The notes: generated by a model from the sequence alone, not told the origin. 64,000 nucleotides of DNA from Stagnimonas sp. (GCA_046598075.1 JBKJJE010000186.1:3402-67401); one strand, 5' to 3'. Counted from the stretch's first letter, positions 17,993 through 29,623 are shown. Translations and numbers: made by a program.

Positions 17993-18502
17993 ATGGCTCG
18001 TGGCGTCAACAAGGTCATTCTCATCGGCAACCTCGGCAAAGACCCCGAGGTCAAGTTCTTTCCCAATGGCGACGCCTTCTGCAACTGCACGCTCGCCACC
18101 AGCGAAAGCTGGACCGACAAGCAGTCCAACGAAAAGAAAGAGCGCACCGAGTGGCACAACGTGGTGTTCACCAAGAAGCTCGCCGAGATCGTCGGCCAGT
18201 ATCTGAAGAAGGGCAGCAAGGTCTACGTCGAAGGCAGCCTGCGCACCCGCAAGTGGGAGAAAGACGGCCAGGACCGCTACACCACCGAGATCGTCGTGCA
18301 GGACATGCAGATGCTCGACGGCCGCGGCGGCGATGGCGGCAGCGCCGCTGGTGACGGCGGTGGCTACAGCCGCAGTTCCAGCTACAGCGAGCGCAGCAGT
18401 GGCGGCACAAGCCGTGCGCAAGCAGCGCCCGCCCGCAGCCAGCAGCCGGCGCCTGCACCGATGGACGACAGCGGCTTCAGCGACGACGACATTCCGTTTT
18501 AG
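17993..18502 (+). CDS. ssb: Single-stranded DNA-binding protein
   Basis: [25 protein letters not shown], Gly/Ser-rich linker, and C-terminal DDDIPF. Confidence 0.98.
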
Positions 18503-18535
18503 AATTCACCACCGCTCAACTTTGTTGCAACTTTA

Positions 18536-18566
18536 GCGAAAGCCCCCGTTTACCGGGGGCTTTCGC
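18536..18566 (+). terminator. Intrinsic-terminator-like hairpin after ssb
   Basis: 13-bp perfect stem GCGAAAGCCCCCG-TTTAC-CGGGGGCTTTCGC. Confidence 0.75.
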
Positions 18567-18633
18567 CGTTCTGGGGTGCGTCTTTCTTCCCTAAGCTTTT
18601 CCTCGTTCTATTCACCTCACGAACGTGTGAAAT

Positions 18634-19908
18634 ATGAAAGCTTCAGACGCACAAGAAATCCCGCAACTTAAGGTCGGCGTCTTAGTGACGACGCAAGGAG
18701 AGCGACGCCCACTCCTGGTTACTTCGTCGGGAATACCGGACTGGTGGACAACCCTTTACGTCACGGTGCGTGTTCGGAACGTCAGCCGCGCGCCTAACAC
18801 CCAGCGAAACGCGTTGGACGCACTCCAGCTACTAATGCAATGGGGCTCAATAAACCTGAAAGAACAATCACTTGTAGAAAAAATGGCAGTCGGTGGACTT
18901 GCTGAGCATGAGGTCGAATCTCTTCGGGTATTTCTATTAGAAAGACGATCAAAAAAGAAAAATAAAAGATTAGAGAGGATAAAGCATTCAAAAAACTCAT
19001 CACTGCCTGAGAAATCGGAGGTTGCAATAGTGTCACAAGAGACTCTTTACAACCGCCTCACCACAGTCGCGAATTTTCTGCATTTTCTTTACTTTAATAC
19101 CACGAAAGCAAGCAAAAGTGAAAGTGACTTGGAAATAAGCGACTCCATTAAAAGGATGCTGAATCAGATTTTGAATCTCAGGCCTCAGCTCGGAGCGACT
19201 TCTCTAGTATCTGGTCGAATGGGAATGGATAACGAAGAGGTTGTAGCCATCCTCGATATTGTGAGCGACGCAAACCCCAGCAACCCATTTGAAGTGAGTG
19301 TAAGGCGACGCAACAAAATAATCGTCGAGCTTCTTTTAAAAACAGGAATTCGCGCCGGAGAGCTACTCAACTTAAAAGTTTCTGATTTTAGTTTTAGAGA
19401 AAATACGATAACCATTGCCCGCCGACATAACGAACTTGAAGACCCTAGAAAAAAGCAACCAGTAGTAAAAACACTTGATCGGGTTTTACCGATCCACGAC
19501 GAGTTGATGACTGAGATATTCGACTACCTCAATATCGATCGCGCGAGCACCGGAAACGCGCATAAGCACTCTTATCTATTCGTCGTTCATAAAACTGGCC
19601 CTCATCATGGGATGCCGCTCAACTACACCGGCCTATACAAAATATTTCAGAAAATTCTAAGAAATACTGAGCTATCAAACTCTTTGTCGCCGCATGTATT
19701 TCGACATACCAAAAATGATCTCCTCTCTCAGGAGTTTGATCAGAAAGGCACATCTACAGCCCAAGAAGAGAAGTTGAGGTCCTATCTAATGGGTTGGTCT
19801 GAAGGTTCCGGGACAGCAGTTAGGTATACGAAAAGGCACACCCAAAAAGAAGCGAACAAAGCTTCGTTAAGCATGCAATCAAATCTTCGGGCACGTCTTA
19901 AATCCTGA
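18634..19908 (+). CDS. Tyrosine recombinase/integrase 1
   Basis: Catalytic set TGIRAGELLNL (R), HVFRH (HxxR), LMGW, VRYT (Y). Confidence 0.9.
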   Translation: MKASDAQEIPQLKVGVLVTTQGERRPLLVTSSGIPDWWTTLYVTVRVRNVSRAPNTQRNALDALQLLMQWGSINLKEQSLVEKMAVGGLAEHEVESLRVFLLERRSKKKNKRLERIKHSKNSSLPEKSEVAIVSQETLYNRLTTVANFLHFLYFNTTKASKSESDLEISDSIKRMLNQILNLRPQLGATSLVSGRMGMDNEEVVAILDIVSDANPSNPFEVSVRRRNKIIVELLLKTGIRAGELLNLKVSDFSFRENTITIARRHNELEDPRKKQPVVKTLDRVLPIHDELMTEIFDYLNIDRASTGNAHKHSYLFVVHKTGPHHGMPLNYTGLYKIFQKILRNTELSNSLSPHVFRHTKNDLLSQEFDQKGTSTAQEEKLRSYLMGWSEGSGTAVRYTKRHTQKEANKASLSMQSNLRARLKS

Positions 19909-19948
19909 ATAATTATCACTTATACGAAACACTTCATTAGGCCTACCT

Positions 19949-21520
19949 ATGCGCGAACTGCCTGAATCTGCCTCATCTACAGAAAAGTATCTTTTTGACC
20001 CGCGTCAAGACAAATGGGTTCTGAGTAGAAATAAAACAGTAATATTTTCACCTCTAAAGGAAATTATTGGCCCGGAACTGTTTCAATCGTTCAAGCACTT
20101 GCTTTATTTAGCTGCACTCTCCTATTCGCCATCGCATGTGTTAAACCTATACCGACACTTCACCCATTTCGCCAAACATTGTTATTCCACCGGATCAAAA
20201 TTAGATGAAATATCTGCCCCGAGCGTTATTAACTATTTCTCCTTTCTTAGTCCGAAGGATAGGTGGAGGACCACATATGTGAAATTGGCAGTGATTGGTT
20301 TTGATGACCACCGTTTAACTGGAGCGAGCGCGGAAGCACTTAGCTGCGTCAAGAAGCTGAAAATCCCAAAGAATGTCCAAGGCGAAGCTGTAAGAAACCA
20401 CGATAAATACTTGGGGGCCTTATCCGAGCTAGAGATTTTGTCTCTTGATGAACATGCGCTTGCAGCGTATGAGCGCAGACTTATAAATCTTGAGGAATAT
20501 TCCTTATTGTTGGTTTTTCGATCAATCGGTAGCCGTCCTTCTCAGGTAACTGATTTGAAGCGCATAGATTTTTATAGGGCAATTGATAAAACAAAAAGCG
20601 CGGTTAGATATTTAATTAACGTACCGAGGAGAAAGCAGCGACTTGGACAAAATCGCTTTAGAGGGCAGTTTCACGAATACGCACTTACCCCCGAAATTGG
20701 GGAAGTTCTCGAGGCATATCTGATTGAAACAGAGAATCGGGTCCTATCACTTATTCCCCAGATAACACCGGATCAGATGGCGAAACTTCCAATCTTTTTG
20801 AACTGGTCTTTGCTGACCAAAGCAATAAATGGGGGTTCGGTCTTGGACTTGATAGGCGACACGGATATTTTTCATAGGACATCTAGTGACGCAGGCGCAG
20901 CGATTCGCCAAATAGGAGCCGTTATGGCTGCTCCCTCGGAGAGAATCGGAGTTCTCAGCTTTAGCCCCATCCGTTTTCGTCGCACGATAGGAACGCGGGC
21001 AGCTCGTGAGGGCTATGGAGTCAACGTCATAGCGACGTTGCTAGACCACAGCGACCATCAGTCTGCAGAGATCTATACCGAGGATGTACCCGAAGCCGCT
21101 GTCGCCATCGATAAGGCAATGAGCATGCAGATGGCACCTCTTGCTCAGGCGTTTTCAGGGGTCTTGGTCTCTAGTGAAGCTTTGGCGAAGCGCGGGGACG
21201 ATATTCGCAGTCGCATACGCACCGACACGGGCACGAGCGTGGGAACTTGCGGCGAGTACGGCTTTTGTTCGTTAGCTGCCCCTCTGGGTTGTTACACATG
21301 CCGTCAGTTCCAACCATGGCTCGACGCCCCTCATGAAGAATTGCTCGATGGACTGCTGGATGAGCGGGAAAGGGTGCAGAAGCGGACTGGAGATCTAACA
21401 ATCGCTGCCGTCAACGACAGGACAATTTTTGCTGTTGCGCAGGTCATCAAACTTTGTGACTTAACTCGCAGCCAGTCGGCCCCACGACTTGCAGATGCAG
21501 GAGTGGCGAAATGCTCCTAA
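19949..21520 (+). CDS. Tyrosine recombinase/integrase 2 with a C-terminal Cys-rich domain
   Basis: GSRPSQVTDL (R), PIRFRRT, LLDH, EIYT (Y). C-terminal GTCGEYGFCSLAAPLGCYTCRQF. Confidence 0.85.
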   Translation: MRELPESASSTEKYLFDPRQDKWVLSRNKTVIFSPLKEIIGPELFQSFKHLLYLAALSYSPSHVLNLYRHFTHFAKHCYSTGSKLDEISAPSVINYFSFLSPKDRWRTTYVKLAVIGFDDHRLTGASAEALSCVKKLKIPKNVQGEAVRNHDKYLGALSELEILSLDEHALAAYERRLINLEEYSLLLVFRSIGSRPSQVTDLKRIDFYRAIDKTKSAVRYLINVPRRKQRLGQNRFRGQFHEYALTPEIGEVLEAYLIETENRVLSLIPQITPDQMAKLPIFLNWSLLTKAINGGSVLDLIGDTDIFHRTSSDAGAAIRQIGAVMAAPSERIGVLSFSPIRFRRTIGTRAAREGYGVNVIATLLDHSDHQSAEIYTEDVPEAAVAIDKAMSMQMAPLAQAFSGVLVSSEALAKRGDDIRSRIRTDTGTSVGTCGEYGFCSLAAPLGCYTCRQFQPWLDAPHEELLDGLLDERERVQKRTGDLTIAAVNDRTIFAVAQVIKLCDLTRSQSAPRLADAGVAKCS

Positions 21521-22488
21521 ACGTCGATATCGCTCGAGCTAACATCGCGCAATACATCCATACAGCAAAAAATGATCTAACGGTTTTCGGAAAGGACCTC
21601 GACTGGGAAAACAATAACTGGAAAAAGGCTCGTATTAACTTCAGCAACTCGGAGTGCACCTCGCGGGTTCTCACTCACGAAACGACCATGGCGGAGCCGT
21701 TCTTGAGCTTCGCGAAGGCCTACCTGAGAACCTCGCAAGGTCTCAAACCGGCTAAAGCGATGCGAGAGATTTCTGCACTCAAGTGCGTCGAATTCGTGCT
21801 GAGAAAGCGCTATGAAAAGCCTCGCCCAGAGGATATTTCCAACACAGTTCTCGATGATGCCGCGCAGCATGGAATTGAAAGATATACGCCGACTGTTGCG
21901 TATGCGGTTGGCCGGGAGTTGGCAAGGCTTGGAGTCGAAATCGAGTCACTGAAGCTCTCTGCTTACCGGATCGATTGGACAAATCCCGTTACACGCGTAA
22001 CTCACTTAAGTGCCCGCACCGGACCAGAGGCGAAAGCACATCGCGATTCGAGGATGCCGTGTACGGAGGCCCTGGATGCACTAGCCGAGATTTTCGCAGC
22101 CAACCCGGTACATCCACGAGATATTTTGACTTCGTCAACAATGGCCCTTCTTTCTGGGGCTCCTTTCCGCATTTCGCAGGCGCTAGCGTTGTACGTCGAT
22201 TGCGAAACCACTGAGCGCCGAAACAACGGCGAGCCGGCGTACGGACTTCTCGCGCCGAGCAGCAAGCTTGCAGACATTCACACGAAGTGGGTGCCAACGG
22301 TCATGTGGCCGATTGTCCAAGAGAGTCTGCGCCGCATACGGGGAATGACAGACGAGGGTATGGTCGTAGACTCGATTTTGTCGAATGTCGGTACGTCCAG
22401 ACCAGCGCTTGATTTCATCCTGCGTCATCCCACCACGCTGCGCATACGTGTTAAGCATGTGCCGGATCTGATGTGTGGTGATCTTTAA
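21511..22488 (+). pseudogene. Third integrase-like gene, N-terminal part; authentic sequence ends near 22357
   Basis: APFRISQALAL (first catalytic R box) and IHTKWVPTVMWPIVQESLRRIRGMTDEG. The remaining codons are the antisense of an inverted fragment. Confidence 0.7.
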
Positions 22489-22674
22489 AGGAACTGCTCG
22501 TCCCTCTTCATAGCCGAATCGACGAAAGATGTTCCTCATCTCGCGTGAGGACACCGATTCGAGATCAACATGAATATTCTGAACCCGTACGCGCTCGACC
22601 AGAACTGGGGAGGGAGTTGACTTGAGATACAGGCTACGGGCTTGCAGGCAAAACAGTGCCTCTGAGAACTTCAT
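22360..22674 (-). pseudogene. Inverted C-terminal catalytic fragment of a tyrosine recombinase (probably from integrase 3)
   Basis: Minus strand reads ...ITTHQIRHMLNTYAQRGGMTQDEIKRWSGRTDIRQNRVYDH (HxxR, W/H box, Y). The frame is closed by TAG just upstream at 22684-22686. Confidence 0.75.
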
Positions 22675-23026
22675 CCGAACAACCTACGACGCTCTGTATC
22701 AAGCCTTGGGCCGCGATCCAAACATCAAGATTGGCCGAGTCCAATACATCGACATGAATACCACCTATGCGGGAGTCAATGACGCCCTCTGGAGAAAGCG
22801 GACGTCCTTCGAGCATGAGCGTGAGGTCAGAGCACTCACTCTCGATTTTCACAGCAAGGAGCCGGGCAAGTTGATGCCTTGCGACATGTCGGTACTAATT
22901 CAGGAAGTCTTCGTGTCGCCCAAGGCGCCCAGCTGGTTTATCGCTCTAGTCAATGACATCAACAGCAAGTACGGCCTGGAGCGACAAGTCAGCACTTCAT
23001 CGCTTGTTGAGGAGCCATTTTTTTGA
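22673..23026 (+). pseudogene. 5'-truncated DUF2971-like gene (C-terminal half)
   Basis: IGRVQYID...WRKRTSFEHEREVRAL...IQEVFVSPKAPSWF resembles DUF2971 C-termini. The first ~17 codons of the track ORF are antisense of the inverted fragment. Confidence 0.55.
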
Positions 23027-23033
23027 AATGTCG

Positions 23034-23065
23034 GCATAACAAGTTGTTCCAGCGGGGCGTTGAAT
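23034..23065 (+). other. Collapsed/degenerate integron attC-like site
   Basis: GCATAAC-AAGTT-GTTCCAGC-GGGGC-GTTGAAT, 7 bp after a stop codon. R''/L'' and R' (GTTRRRY) are present, but L' and the central loop are missing. Confidence 0.35.
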
Positions 23066-23402
23066 GACTGCTTTCTGCGCTGAGTTTTCGTATTTGAACG
23101 TCAGCAGTTGGCACCGAGTCGCCGGTGGCTGCGGACTCACTCCATTACAAGCAGACGCTGAGCAGACAGTCGGCATCTGTCCGGCTTTCACTACGCGACG
23201 CTCCTCTACGACGCTGTCGCAGAATGACGCATCAGACTCGCCGCTTGTGCCAGAGATCAATATGAGGATGATCTCTTCCAGACAATTCAGATGCCGCGCA
23301 CATAGCCCAGAAACCTATATGAAACATGGCGTCCGGGGATTATTCAGAGACGGTAATTCACAGCCGCGCTGCACCCATCGGCACAGCTGAGCCGGGGTTT
23401 CG

Positions 23403-24110
23403 TCAGGCAGCACGGCGCAGCAACTGGCGCTGCAGGGCGGCGATGGCGAAGGTCAGCCGTTGCTGCTGCGGCGGTGCGAGGTCCTCGAACAGGATGCCGA
23501 TCTCGATGCCGGCGCTGCTGCGCCGCCGCCAGCGCACCTCGGCGCGACAGCTGACATGCGAGTCGTGCAGGTCGATGACGCATTCCATGTTCGCACCCAC
23601 CAGCACGTCGGAGCCGGGGCTCAGGCGGGCGCAGAGCCCGAGTGCGGAGATGTCGATCAGCTGCCCGCGAAAACGCTGGCTGTGATCGAAGAAATGGGTG
23701 CCGATGATGCCGGGCAGGCGGGTCACCCGCAGCCGGAAAGTGCTGCGCCGCTGCAGGTAGAGGGCCTCGGCGGGCAGTGCCACGATCCACCTGAAGCGGT
23801 CGGCGTCGACGAAGTCGCTGACGAACTCGAAGCGCGCGCCGTCTAGGCGCGCACCGATGCGCAGCGAGGTGCCGGGTTGCGGTGCGCGGGCGGCCGGTGG
23901 CGCATCCAGTTGCAGGCGCTGGTGGCTGCGGTCTATGCCGACCAGCATGCTGCAGGCCGGTTTCAGCACGCCGGGCATCGACAGGTTCAGCAGCACCCGG
24001 CTGTCGAGGCTGCGCTGCAAAAGGCCGGCGATGCGCTGTGCATCTTTCAGCAGCAGCGCCTCCTCCGCTGCCGGGTAGTCGGGCCGCTGCAGGGTGGCTT
24101 CGTCAAGCAC
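23403..24110 (-). CDS. Flagellar brake-like PilZ-domain protein (YcgR-like)
   Basis: PilZ motifs QRRSTFRL (RxxxR) and DISALG (DxSxxG). It lies downstream of flgMN. Confidence 0.8.
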   Translation of the reverse strand: MLDEATLQRPDYPAAEEALLLKDAQRIAGLLQRSLDSRVLLNLSMPGVLKPACSMLVGIDRSHQRLQLDAPPAARAPQPGTSLRIGARLDGARFEFVSDFVDADRFRWIVALPAEALYLQRRSTFRLRVTRLPGIIGTHFFDHSQRFRGQLIDISALGLCARLSPGSDVLVGANMECVIDLHDSHVSCRAEVRWRRRSSAGIEIGILFEDLAPPQQQRLTFAIAALQRQLLRRAA

Positions 24111-26817: not shown

Positions 26818-27228
26818 ATGGCCGGACCCGATCCCATTTTTGGCATTCACGCGCAGGCGATGGGCCTGCAGCGTCAGCGCATGGAAGTGCTGGCCGCGAA
26901 CATCGCCAACGCCGACACCCCCCACTATCAGGCCCGTGATGTCGACTTTGCCCAGCAGCTGAAAGCGACACTGCGGGCCGCAGGCCCGGCGCTGCCGACA
27001 CCGGCGGCGACCCAGCCTGGGCATATCCCGGTCGGTGGGGCGGATGGCGGCCAGTCTGCTGAAAGGCTGGTCTATCGCATCGCCCTGCAACCGAGTGTCG
27101 ACGGCAACACCGTCGATACCCAGGTCGAACAGGCGCAGTTTGCCGACGCCGCCTTGCACTACCAGGCCAGCCTCGGCTTTGCCGATGCCCGCCTGCGCAG
27201 CCTGATGACGGCGCTGACCGGGCAATAG
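26818..27228 (+). CDS. flgB: Flagellar basal-body rod protein FlgB
   Basis: LAANIANADTPHYQARDVDF, SVDGNTVD. Confidence 0.95.
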   Translation: MAGPDPIFGIHAQAMGLQRQRMEVLAANIANADTPHYQARDVDFAQQLKATLRAAGPALPTPAATQPGHIPVGGADGGQSAERLVYRIALQPSVDGNTVDTQVEQAQFADAALHYQASLGFADARLRSLMTALTGQ

Positions 27229-27230
27229 CC

Positions 27231-27641
27231 ATGTCTTCCTTCCGCATTTTCGACATCGCCGGCTCGGCACTCAGCGCGCAGTCGCTGCGGCTCAACACAG
27301 TCGCCAGCAACCTCGCCAACGCCGACGGCATCAGCGCCACGGCGGAGGGTACCTACCGGGCCAGGATGCCGGTGTTCCGCGCTGCAGCGTCCTCGCCCGA
27401 TAGTCCGGGCGGTGCCGGCGTGCAGGTGCTGGGGGTGGTGGAGAGTCAGGCCGCTCCCGAGAAACGCTATGAACCCGGCCATCCGCTGGCTGATGGCGAG
27501 GGCTATGTCTATGCGCCAAACGTCAACGTGGTGGAAGAAATGACCAACATGATTTCTGCCTCGCGCGCCTATCAAAGCAGCGTCGAGGTGATGAACACCG
27601 CCAAAGAGCTGGCGATCCGCACGCTCAGCCTTGGCAAGTAG
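27231..27641 (+). CDS. flgC: Flagellar basal-body rod protein FlgC
   Basis: [40 protein letters not shown]. Confidence 0.96.
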   Translation: MSSFRIFDIAGSALSAQSLRLNTVASNLANADGISATAEGTYRARMPVFRAAASSPDSPGGAGVQVLGVVESQAAPEKRYEPGHPLADGEGYVYAPNVNVVEEMTNMISASRAYQSSVEVMNTAKELAIRTLSLGK

Positions 27642-27664
27642 CCGCCGCCTCAAAGGAGCCACCC

Positions 27665-28336
27665 ATGTCCATTGCCGCTACCAATCCCGCTACGGCCAGC
27701 CTCTCCGGTCTGGGCCTTGCGCTGCGCGCCGCGGAAAAAAAGCCGGAGTCGCTCGGACAGCAGGATTTTCTCAAGCTGATGACCACCCAGCTCACCAATC
27801 AGGACCCGACCAAGCCGCTGGAGAGCAACGAGTTTCTCGGCCAGCTGGCGCAGTTCTCGACAGTGTCGGGCATCCAGGAGCTGCAGCAGTCGTTCACTGC
27901 CCTGTCCAGCTCGCTTACCGCAGGCCAGTCGCTACAGGCAGCAGGGTTGGTTGGCCATGGAGTGCTGGTGCCTTCCGAAATCGGCACGCTGGATGGTGAG
28001 CTGGGTCTGAGCGGTGCGGCCGAACTCGCTGGCGGTGGCCAGTTGGTGGTGGAGATCAGCGACGCCAACGGCCAGGTGCAGCGGCGGCTCGACTACGGCA
28101 GCCAGCCCGCAGGCCTCAGCTATTTCCACTGGGACGGCAAGGACGGCAGCGGTGCGATGCTGCCTTCCGGCAATTACACCCTTCGCGCCACGGTCAGCAG
28201 CGGTGGCGCCAGCCAGGCTGCCGACACCTTTGCCGCCGCTGCCGTGCAGAGCGTTTCCATCGGTGCCAATGGCCTGGCCCTGCAACTCGGCGGGCTGGGC
28301 GAAGTGCCCTTCAGCAGCGTCCGTCAGATTCTCTAG
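27665..28336 (+). CDS. flgD: Flagellar hook capping protein FlgD
   Basis: DFLKLMTTQLTNQDPTKP, QLAQFS, WDGKD. Confidence 0.95.
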   Translation: MSIAATNPATASLSGLGLALRAAEKKPESLGQQDFLKLMTTQLTNQDPTKPLESNEFLGQLAQFSTVSGIQELQQSFTALSSSLTAGQSLQAAGLVGHGVLVPSEIGTLDGELGLSGAAELAGGGQLVVEISDANGQVQRRLDYGSQPAGLSYFHWDGKDGSGAMLPSGNYTLRATVSSGGASQAADTFAAAAVQSVSIGANGLALQLGGLGEVPFSSVRQIL

Positions 28337-28402
28337 CGCCGGCAGCATCCGCCGGCGATCACCCCACAGGCAGCACTCGTCTTTTTCACCGGAGCACACC
28401 CC

Positions 28403-29623
28403 ATGTCCTTCAACACCGCACTCACCGGCCTCAATGCGGCGTCAGCCAACCTGAGCGTCACCGCCAACAATATCGCCAACGCCAACACCACCGGCTTCAA
28501 GGAATCGCGCAGCGAGTTTGCCGATTTCTTTCCCTCGGATGCCTACGGCCTGTCACGAAATGCCGTCGGTGCCGGCGTGCGCGTGGCGCGCGTGGCGCAG
28601 CAGTTCACCCAGGGCTCGATCAATGTCACCAACAACTCGCTGGACCTGGCGGTGAGCGGTAGCGGCTATTTCACTTTGCTCAAGGATGGCATCACCTCCT
28701 ACTCCCGCGCCGGCGCGTTCGGGGCGGACAGCAATGGCTACATCACCAATGCCACCGGTGCGCGGCTGCAGGCTTACCCGCCGGTGGCCGGCAGCCAGGC
28801 CTTCGATACCGCCACGCTGACGGACATCCGGCTGTCGACCTCCGACAACCCACCGAGAGCCAGTACCCGCATCGACGTCAACATCAATCTGCCTGCGACC
28901 GCCACCACGCCGACCACCACGCCGTTCTCCGCTGCTGATCCCAGCAGCTTCAACAACACCACGTCGGTGACGCTCTACGACTCGCTGGGCAGCGCCCATC
29001 CGGCCAACCTGTTTTTCGTCAAGTCGCCGACCGCCAACAACTGGGAGGTCTACACCCAGGTCGACGGCAATGCCGTCGGCGCGCCGACCGCTGTCAGCTT
29101 TGCCAGCGACGGCACGCTGGGCACGCCTGCGGGCGGCAATATCAGCCTCTCGGCCTACACGCCCGGCAATGGCTCGGCGCCGTTGAACCTGACGGTGGCA
29201 CTCGGCAGCAGCACCCAGTACGGCGACAGCTTTTCGGTCAACAGCCTGCTTGAGGATGGCTATGCCAGCGGCCGGCTCACCGGCATCGAGGTAACCCGCG
29301 AGGGCATCGTGCAGGCGCGCTTCACCAACGGCCAGTCCACCGGCTTGGGGCAGCTGGCGATGGCCAACTTTGCCAATCCGCAGGGCCTGCAGCAGCTGGG
29401 CGACACCAGCTGGGGCGAGACTTTTGCGTCCGGTGCCGTACTCCGCGGCGTCGGTGGCTCTGGCGGTCTCGGCGACATCCAGGCCGGAGCACTGGAAGGC
29501 AGCAATGTCGACATCACCGCGCAGCTGGTGAACATGATCACCGCCCAGCGCGCCTTCCAGGCCAACGCACAGGTGATCTCCACCACCGACCAGGTCACCC
29601 AGACCATCATCAACATCCGCTAG
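28403..29623 (+). CDS. flgE: Flagellar hook protein FlgE
   Basis: MSFNTALTGLNAA, ANNIANANTTGFK, GALEGSNVD...QRAFQANA. Confidence 0.96.
   Translation: MSFNTALTGLNAASANLSVTANNIANANTTGFKESRSEFADFFPSDAYGLSRNAVGAGVRVARVAQQFTQGSINVTNNSLDLAVSGSGYFTLLKDGITSYSRAGAFGADSNGYITNATGARLQAYPPVAGSQAFDTATLTDIRLSTSDNPPRASTRIDVNINLPATATTPTTTPFSAADPSSFNNTTSVTLYDSLGSAHPANLFFVKSPTANNWEVYTQVDGNAVGAPTAVSFASDGTLGTPAGGNISLSAYTPGNGSAPLNLTVALGSSTQYGDSFSVNSLLEDGYASGRLTGIEVTREGIVQARFTNGQSTGLGQLAMANFANPQGLQQLGDTSWGETFASGAVLRGVGGSGGLGDIQAGALEGSNVDITAQLVNMITAQRAFQANAQVISTTDQVTQTIINIR

Follow-up and report, generated by a model that had tools for sequence, protein, structure and literature searches.

What kind of mobile element carries several tyrosine-recombinase-like genes side by side, and can the copy that lies between ssb and the flagellar genes of Stagnimonas sp. 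still move? The locus lies in a window of 64,000 nucleotides (GCA_046598075.1, JBKJJE010000186.1:3402-67401), which is the whole stretch of DNA that was analysed and from whose first letter all positions are counted. Our analysis indicates that the island is very probably the remnant of a GInt, an element type defined by the genes ginABCD (three proteins with a tyrosine-recombinase fold and a small helper), and is a broken copy of a type already described.

An AT-richer island begins at the ssb stop codon

The features of the locus, under the names argued for below, are as follows.

17993 to 18502, plus strand: ssb, the target gene (Pfam SSB, 5.3e-38)
18491 to 18502, plus strand: last codons of ssb and stop, ATTCCGTTTTAG, host half of the putative attL
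18503 to 18633, plus strand: putative GInt left end, with the box AATTCACC directly 3' of the ssb stop
18634 to 19908, plus strand: ginA, intact, 424 aa (Pfam Phage_integrase, 9e-19)
19949 to 21520, plus strand: ginB, intact, 523 aa (NCBIfam NF041502 'integrase_1', 1.6e-146, above the cut-off)
21511 to 22361, plus strand: N-terminal part of ginC, residues 1 to about 285 of about 672, with the APFRISQ Arg box (tblastn, alignment)
22674 to 22360, minus strand: internal catalytic fragment of ginC, residues 370 to 474 (HQIRH, WSGR, NRVYDH), inverted (tblastn, Pfam)
22622 to 23026, plus strand: cargo remnant, C-terminal half of a PDC-S31-like defence-candidate gene (PADLOC PDC-S31, 1.8e-9)
23011 to 23030, plus strand: candidate attR, GAGGAGCCATTTTTTTGAAA, by sequence reading, like the ssb end and the published right repeats of ssb-GInts
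23027 to 23355, no strand: non-coding tail, 53% G+C, by composition
23403 to 24110, minus strand: YcgR-like PilZ gene of the host flank (Pfam PilZ, 3.9e-11, and PilZN)

The G+C fraction over positions 18503 to 23355 is 0.49, against 0.656 in the left flank and 0.668 in the right flank, so that the AT-richer block noticed after ssb by the initial annotation is real (49% G+C versus 66% in the flanks). Its left end had been placed at 18567; the island instead starts at the ssb stop codon, at 18503. The SSB product still ends in ...DDDIPF, and the similarity of congeners to the window ends directly after the ssb stop codon. The left end holds a GTTGCAAC box about 20 nt beyond the AATTCACC box, and a terminator-like hairpin (18536 to 18566) that leads into a T-rich run. 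Judged by eye and uncounted, most of the related loci displayed share this layout of a YACC box, a TGTAAA/TGTTGC box, a hairpin and a T-run after the ssb stop; the congeners G008, G003 and G010 have no such hairpin between the ssb stop and the ECF sigma gene that comes next. The gap between the ssb stop and ginA is 131 nt in the window, and its median in related loci is 143 nt.

On the right-hand side, the G+C content of the tail of about 330 nt drops to 47% and then rises to 0.68 at about 23350. This tail represents either the AT-rich 3' end of the island or what is left of an older, second element. The segment from 23027 to 23400 is not repeated in the rest of the genome, gave no fold signal and was not matched in the related loci. 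The YcgR-like PilZ gene beyond it opens the flagellar cluster (flgN, flgM, flgA onward), and the order flgA-flgM-flgN-pilZ is kept in congeners. ORF reading and Pfam searches revealed no transposase, phage structural or conjugation gene in the block, as had been claimed, and no long terminal inverted repeats were found at the element.

Two recombinase genes are intact and the third is broken

GinA is an ordinary tyrosine recombinase, with R240, H354-x-x-R357, W388 and Y398. Over its full length it is 39% identical to GinA of the related locus L003 (E 1e-103) and 33% identical to GinA of the Escherichia coli plasmid pSJ_82 (E 1e-67). GinB is recombinase-like: it has R196, H367 and Y376, R342-F-R344-R345 replaces HxxR, and C434, C440, C448 and C451 form a C-terminal Cys4 cluster, which confirms both peculiarities that had been described for the second protein. 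In an alignment of 20 sequences, the columns of the GinB motif residues are invariant or nearly so, and those of RFRR and the Cys cluster are invariant; these two features are therefore family traits and not quirks of the window copy. The closest relative of GinB (P0002) shares 47% identity with it, the maximum in the protein databases searched.

The suspicion that the third gene was once longer proved right, since intact homologues have 672 to 673 aa. We mapped its residues by alignment with 72 full-length GinC proteins. When intact GinC from L003 or from Rudaea (L005) was used as the tblastn query, residues 1 to 290 were covered at 45% and 42% identity, respectively. The called ORF of 325 aa continues to 22488 through the antisense of an inverted ginC piece. 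This piece, on the minus strand, is 59% identical to residues 370 to 474 of L003 GinC (tblastn) and matches Pfam Phage_integrase at 8e-5. Because residues 370 to 474 are encoded on the minus strand, the co-orientation reported for the three genes holds for genes 1 and 2 and for the N-terminal part of gene 3, but not for the catalytic motifs of gene 3. Residues 291 to 369 and 475 to 672 are absent from the assembly, which is 96.8% complete, and ginD is absent both from the window and from the rest of that assembly.

The cargo is likewise reduced. Residues 45 to 130 of the cargo ORF align to positions 147 to 235 of the 245 positions of the PDC-S31 profile, the ORF has no Pfam match, and the N-terminal approximately 100 to 145 profile positions are cut off where the ORF meets the inverted piece of ginC. 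Read from the DNA, these alignments demonstrate a decayed state in which the 3' half of a predicted PDC-S31-like gene survives.

The intact relatives are four-gene modules at the end of ssb

Does the same set of genes occur together elsewhere? Our comparison set comprised 80 related loci, spread over many phyla. The full module does recur: ginA-ginB-ginC-ginD is colinear and complete in 73 of the 74 loci with enough room. It is, however, not the three-gene module first proposed, as the defining module has a fourth small gene, ginD. The four intact genes encode proteins of about 424, 520, 672 and 135 aa (134 to 141 aa for ginD) and span approximately 5.3 kb. The proposed targeting of the 3' side of ssb was also borne out: in 65 of 67 related loci, the next gene upstream of ginA is ssb, in the same orientation. 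The first cargo genes of the gathered loci are often defence related, and a class with variable cargo is supported.

The GInt class (ginABCD) was described by Bardaji et al. 2017 (PMC5385486, Sci Rep 7:46254), in whose set the end of ssb was the commonest target and harboured 6 of the 11 analysed GInts. A later survey is that of Idola 2023 (PMC10214605), and E. coli GInts have been reported as carriers of defence genes (Hochhauser 2023, PMC10121019). The link from the island to these published GInts runs via the listing of the pSJ_82 ginC, the architecture and the ssb target. Additional file 10 of Idola 2023 (PMC10214605) counts the third gene of the pSJ_82 module (WP_000807722.1, CDS 26980-29013) among the orthologues of ginC, and that module is homologous to GinA, GinB and the two GinC pieces of the window (E 1e-67, 1e-97, 1e-50 and 1e-22, respectively). 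Over the modules of L003, Rudaea and pSJ_82, alignments with the window gin proteins range from E 1e-22 to 1e-168. GinC relatives keep R, HxxR, W and Y, whereas published descriptions have GinC without catalytic residues.

The island shares much with the ssb-GInts of Ralstonia solanacearum PSI07, Shewanella baltica BA175, Opitutus terrae PB90-1 and P. syringae UMAF0158 (Bardaji 2017, PMC5385486) and with the GInt of pSJ_82, which carries Avs4. Common to them are homologous ginA, ginB and ginC, insertion at the ssb stop (in the window, the 3' end of ssb, where attL and the stop overlap) with SSB unchanged, gin genes proximal to ssb with defence-type cargo downstream, a G+C content below that of the host, and no conjugation or phage genes. 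The tripartite GInt layout of gin operon, cargo and short AT-rich 3' end is present in the window, much shortened. Unlike the ssb-GInts, the island has a ginC that is split, partly inverted and truncated, no ginD, cargo amounting to half a gene, no clear right repeat and divergent proteins. Because the four-gene operon is complete in the relatives and incomplete here (ginC broken, ginD gone), we class the window copy as a remnant by descent and not as a working GInt.

Could the island instead belong to another family with adjacent recombinase genes? Integrative elements of the strand-biased circularizing kind (SEs; intA-tfp-intB-srap), exemplified by SE-6283, SE-6945 and SE-Pda04Ya311 (Nonaka and Idola et al.), have a similar gene order of an ordinary recombinase, a deviant one, a large one and a small protein. 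Like GInts, they have a four-gene module in which two tyrosine recombinases look catalytic, one protein of that fold is deviant and a small coiled-coil helper completes the set, they insert site specifically and they lack transfer genes; the gammaproteobacterial host is also within their host range. Nevertheless, an SE is highly improbable here. The proteins of the experimentally validated SE-Pda04Ya311 of pAQU1 (545, 614, 671 and 161 aa) gave a best BLASTP E of 0.03 against the window, L003 and pSJ_82, and an SE was rejected at the sequence level for want of a significant match. The window has no homologues of the SE markers of Idola 2023 (Tfp and Srap), Tfp does not match NF041502, and GinC and Tfp form separate clusters in that survey (PMC10214605). 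SEs differ from the island in protein sizes and targets too, the ssb target being the one reported for GInts. The odds are slimmer still for a Tn554-like transposon or an element of the RIT (recombinase in trio) type, even though three adjacent tyrosine-recombinase-like genes are present here, Tn554 likewise unites an ordinary recombinase with a large one and a small protein, and RIT (ritABC) and Tn554 (tnpABC) resemble GInts in having several adjacent tyrosine recombinase genes that act together. RIT elements consist of three small genes of the RitA, RitB and RitC families that overlap by 4 to 8 bp, without a fourth, in a whole element of about 3.5 kb, whereas here proteins of 424, 523 and about 672 aa and a fourth gene make up an intact module of approximately 5.3 kb without long terminal inverted repeats. 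The pHG1 RIT trio (412, 314 and 332 aa) matched the Gin proteins locally, in a generic catalytic domain of about 100 aa at a best E of 1e-6, and RIT identity was rejected on that basis. Tn554 has two recombinases only and is set apart from GInt by architecture. The class proposed initially is thus indeed distinct from RIT and Tn554, but it is not new, being the GInt already described (PMC5385486).

Candidate attachment sites are weak at the right end

For ssb, the att repeats on record are CCGTTCTAAT/CCGTTTTGAAT and the like, and they overlap the ssb stop (Bardaji 2017, PMC5385486). GInts are flanked by imperfect direct repeats of 10 to 17 nt, and our control, pSJ_82, has clean CCGTTCTA repeats at both ends of its GInt; in the window we found weak candidates only. 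The candidate attR at 23011 to 23030 was compared with CCGTTTTGAAT and CCTTTTTTAATT (Bardaji Table S3), a likeness without statistical support. Neither the stretch CCATTTTTTTGAAAT within it, at 23014 to 23028, nor AATTCAC at 23356 to 23362, which repeats the 7 nt directly after the ssb stop (18503 to 18509), rises above chance. The pattern ATTCCGTTYTRR, with 2 mismatches allowed, gave 8 matches versus approximately 9 expected, none of them at the right end of the island. A search of 60 relatives with an 18-nt probe returned mostly noise because the loci were shorter than the elements. The reading of a related right end on contig C128, upstream of the sigma gene displaced there, was dropped, as its local alignment score of 19 is no better than that of shuffles (mean 18.1). 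No relative with an empty site was found by exact-protein look-up of SSB or by a metagenome scan for PilZ. The adjacency of ssb and the flagellar cluster is not kept in congeners, and attB is therefore not reconstructable.

The island is most likely immobile

How might this state have arisen? The published behavior of the family and the placement of the 65 relatives suggest that site-specific recombination of its attachment site with the last ssb codons would have brought the element into the chromosome, leaving ssb intact. The sequence shows that it then decayed: through an inversion with deletions, or a single template switch, the forward N-terminal piece of ginC came to adjoin the backward catalytic piece, and the same damage took away the C-terminal Cys-cluster domain of ginC, the whole of ginD and the greater part of the cargo. 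This damage may be recent, as ginA and ginB are full length with all family-invariant residues.

The same intact pair could be taken to mean that the island still moves or functions, with ginA and ginB sufficing, with help in trans, or with the genes kept by the host for other recombination. We consider this quite unlikely: in Pseudomonas, a mutation in any one of the four gin genes was enough to abolish both excision and integration (Bardaji 2017, PMC5385486), no second GInt, ginD or ginC C terminus that could help in trans was found in the assembly, and no clear attR was seen. It is rather less likely again that the inversion in ginC arose as an artefact when the metagenome bin was assembled and that the real element is intact. 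The genome is a draft of 204 contigs, but a simple misjoin would not also delete residues 291 to 369, residues 475 to 672 and ginD from the whole assembly. Contigs from two further runs (SRR31159454 and SRR31159421) are 100% identical at both ginC junctions, on which ground we rejected the artefact, although one study may be the source of all three assemblies, whose independence is then in doubt. With none of the four gin genes dispensable, the window copy is most likely an immobile remnant, incapable of excising or moving on its own, and not a working element.

Does the remnant mark a larger event? In three congeners, ssb leads directly to an ECF sigma factor and kinase pair. In the window genome, this pair lies on another contig, behind approximately 400 nt of non-coding DNA of lower G+C content, and ssb with its truncated GInt adjoins the flagellar cluster. 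We tentatively raise the possibility, itself rather unlikely, that the island marks a chromosomal rearrangement in which a GInt, or a tandem pair of GInts, was split by a large inversion or translocation with its breakpoint inside.

Beyond annotation, the significance of the island is small. It brings a further GInt, divergent and decayed, from a Nevskiales-type gammaproteobacterium, and the 80 loci indicate how strictly ssb is targeted in this GInt subgroup. Blocks with three integrase genes of this kind should be named ginABC(D) and not a new element class. If the rearrangement were true, one event would have both wrecked ginC and ginD and reshuffled the core genome.

A degraded four-gene module lies behind ssb

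Between ssb and the YcgR-like PilZ gene at the start of the flagellar cluster, we found ∼4.85 kb of foreign-looking DNA with a G+C content of 0.49, versus 0.656 and 0.668 in the flanks.

Features of the island and its flanks (window coordinates)
17993-18502: ssb, left flank (Pfam SSB, 5.3e-38)
18634-19908: ginA ORF, 424 aa, tyrosine-recombinase domain (Pfam, 9e-19)
19949-21520: ginB ORF, 523 aa (curated NCBIfam NF041502 'integrase_1', 1.6e-146)
21511-22488: ORF of 325 aa, containing the N-terminal part of ginC, without a family match
22183-22674: ORF of 163 aa, strand opposite to the 325-aa ORF, with HQIRH...WSGR...VYDH (Pfam Phage_integrase, 8e-5)
22622-23026: PADLOC PDC-S31 (1.8e-9) defence candidate, C-terminal half only, aligned to positions 147-235 of the 245-position profile
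23403-24110: YcgR-like PilZ gene, right flank

The initial annotation described this block correctly overall, except that the catalytic motifs of its third gene are on the minus strand. The 163-aa ORF overlaps the 3' end of the 325-aa ORF on the opposite strand.

The GinB of the window has hundreds of relatives, the closest of which is just 47% identical. Around the two that were looked up, four co-oriented genes are shared with ssb immediately upstream, encoding proteins of 424, 533, 672, and 141 aa in a metagenome contig (L003) and of 429, 519, 673, and 134 aa in Rudaea cellulosilytica (L005). Scanning one genome per species yielded 80 loci from several phyla, which according to record titles include Gamma-, Beta-, and Alphaproteobacteria, Acidobacteriota, Myxococcota, Planctomycetota, and Actinomycetota. 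The order ginA-ginB-ginC-ginD was colinear in 73 of the 74 loci of sufficient length, and a co-oriented ssb was directly upstream of ginA in 65 of the 67 loci whose upstream sequence reached 900 nt or more (median distance from ssb stop to ginA start, 143 nt). The module genes thus co-occur elsewhere, as had been proposed. In the only two loci without ssb in this position, L097 and L071, its place is taken by a protein-kinase-like gene and a LexA/CI-like repressor, and the two loci may represent secondary targets or rearrangements.

The sole exception to colinearity (L041:997-2703, protein P0078) is another decayed GInt, in which ginB is fused in frame to the part of ginC encoding the C-terminal Cys cluster and from which ginD is absent. 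This fusion suggests homology between the C-terminal domains of ginB and ginC, a route by which deletions can arise.

The element belongs with the GInts

A comparable four-gene module is known from two published classes, GInts (ginABCD; Bardaji 2017, PMC5385486) and SEs (intA-tfp-intB-srap; Idola 2023, PMC10214605). The end of ssb was the site of 6 of the 11 GInts analysed by Bardaji et al. (PMC5385486), with att repeats such as CCGTTCTAAT/CCGTTTTGAAT (Bardaji 2017, PMC5385486). A tblastn search of plasmids revealed the module on many E. coli plasmids. On one of these, pSJ_82, the order is ssb, int (415 aa), int (512 aa), hypothetical (677 aa), hypothetical (139 aa), avs4, and abiGi, and the module is bounded by CCGTTCTA repeats. 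Additional file 10 of Idola 2023 (PMC10214605) includes the 677-aa gene, identified by its coordinates and accession, as a ginC orthologue. Alignments of the window with pSJ_82 gave E values of 1e-67 for GinA, 1e-97 for GinB, and 1e-50 and 1e-22 for the GinC pieces. The core proteins of the experimentally validated pAQU1 SE had no significant match (best E, 0.03), and identity with an SE was rejected on this basis. The RIT trio of pHG1 differs in size and arrangement (412, 314, and 332 aa, overlapping genes) and shares with the Gin proteins only short, generic catalytic-domain similarity, so the earlier separation from RIT elements was upheld. Taken together, the ginC listing, the pSJ_82 alignments, and the lack of a comparable SE or RIT match argue that the element is a GInt by descent. 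The proposal of an undescribed element class must accordingly be abandoned in favor of this published one.

The pSJ_82 locus itself (L120, NZ_CP011065.1 24033-35930) is an 11.9-kb GInt that occupies the ssb of a conjugative IncF plasmid, carrying Avs4 and an AbiGi-family gene; a plasmid ssb serves as GInt target here, like the chromosomal one.

ginC is rearranged and ginD is lost

The ginC pieces were mapped by tblastn of the window with the intact L003 and L005 proteins and then refined by alignment. GinC residues 1 to ∼285 correspond to 21511-22361 on the plus strand and residues 370-474 to 22674-22360 on the minus strand, and residues 291-369, residues 475-672, and the whole of ginD have no counterpart in the window. 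These missing parts were also not found elsewhere in the 96.8%-complete assembly. The rearrangement is not peculiar to one assembly: over both ginC junctions, the window is matched at 100% identity by contigs of two separate runs, SRR31159454 and SRR31159421. A 7-nt inverted match, GTCGTAG/CTACGAC, occurs at 22364-22370 and 22686-22692. The first copy coincides with the left junction of the inverted piece, the second lies 12 nt outside its right junction, and the pair may have supplied microhomology for the rearrangement or have arisen by chance (rough odds, ∼0.05).

Catalytic residues of GinB and GinC

The RFRR of GinB is a family trait: in the family alignment, R342 and R344 are invariant and the position of the would-be His is variable, R196, H367, and Y376 are conserved, and C434, C440, C448, and C451 are invariant. 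A comparable Cys cluster is found at the C-terminus of GinC. GinC has been described in the literature as being without the catalytic residues (RHRY set). Aligning 72 full-length GinC sequences (from L035-L114, L003, and pSJ_82) revealed conservation of the Arg box (APsRI.E), HQ.RH, WsGR, and NRvYnH. Judged from these motifs, the ssb-type GinC appears to have a full catalytic set; in this subgroup it is GinB that lacks the His of HxxR (RxRR/Y instead).

Boundaries of the island and gene order around ssb

Among the loci inspected by eye, the DNA behind the ssb stop shows a recurring layout, with a YACC box (+5), a TGTAAA/TGTTGC box (about +20), a hairpin, and a T-run. The window fits this layout, with AATTCACC, then GTTGCAAC, then a hairpin at 18536-18566. 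In congeners G008, G003, and G010, the ssb stop leads straight into an ECF sigma gene with no such hairpin; other congeners do carry a hairpin after ssb. The by-eye layout and the three hairpin-less congeners point to 18503 as the left end of the island. The hairpin, previously read as the ssb terminator, most likely belongs to the element.

In three congeners, an ECF sigma factor gene and a Ser/Thr kinase-TPR gene follow within 30 nt of ssb. The source genome has this pair (sigma, 90% identical) on another contig, C128, and not behind ssb, so the island coincides with a gene-order break, exactly at the island (window 18503). On C128, the pair is preceded by ∼400 nt of noncoding DNA of 50-57% G+C with a terminator hairpin (C128:24483-25500, L131/L132). 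A chromosomal rearrangement may have split the island.

For the right end there are two candidates. A candidate attR at 23014-23028, CCATTTTTTTGAAAT, resembles published ssb-type right repeats but is statistically not convincing. The G+C content jumps to host values at ∼23350, where AATTCAC repeats the 7-nt sequence directly behind the ssb stop, again without statistical conviction. A putative tandem arrangement, with a second, almost wholly deleted element at 23027-23355, would explain both candidates. An empty ssb site was not found by exact-protein look-up of SSB or by a metagenome scan with PilZ. The tail of the truncated PDC-S31-like ORF (23011-23026), ...VEEPFF*, resembles the acidic SSB tip ...DDDIPF*, which could reflect read-through into an att core mimicking the end of ssb, or coincidence.

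Cargo and state of the element

The 5' part of the PDC-S31-like ORF is lost at the end of the inverted ginC piece. Among 63 relatives, the first ORF behind ginD frequently matches defence models (RecD-like/PDC-S68 in 12 loci, Type I methyltransferase in 8), and in pSJ_82 Avs4 comes next after ginD. These matches agree with the report of GInts among the defence-carrying elements of E. coli (Hochhauser 2023, PMC10121019). The protein directly after ginD in the 12 loci is ∼760 aa long (PADLOC PDC-S68, PDC-S53, RecD-like; best E, 4e-61) and, instead of free cargo, may represent an accessory gene that is semi-conserved within one GInt clade.

Excision and integration require all four gin genes (Bardaji 2017, PMC5385486). 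Of these, the window retains ginA and ginB in intact form; an inversion and deletions have scarred ginC, and ginD is missing. The feature is real but ordinary, a decayed ssb-targeting GInt that is probably immobile.
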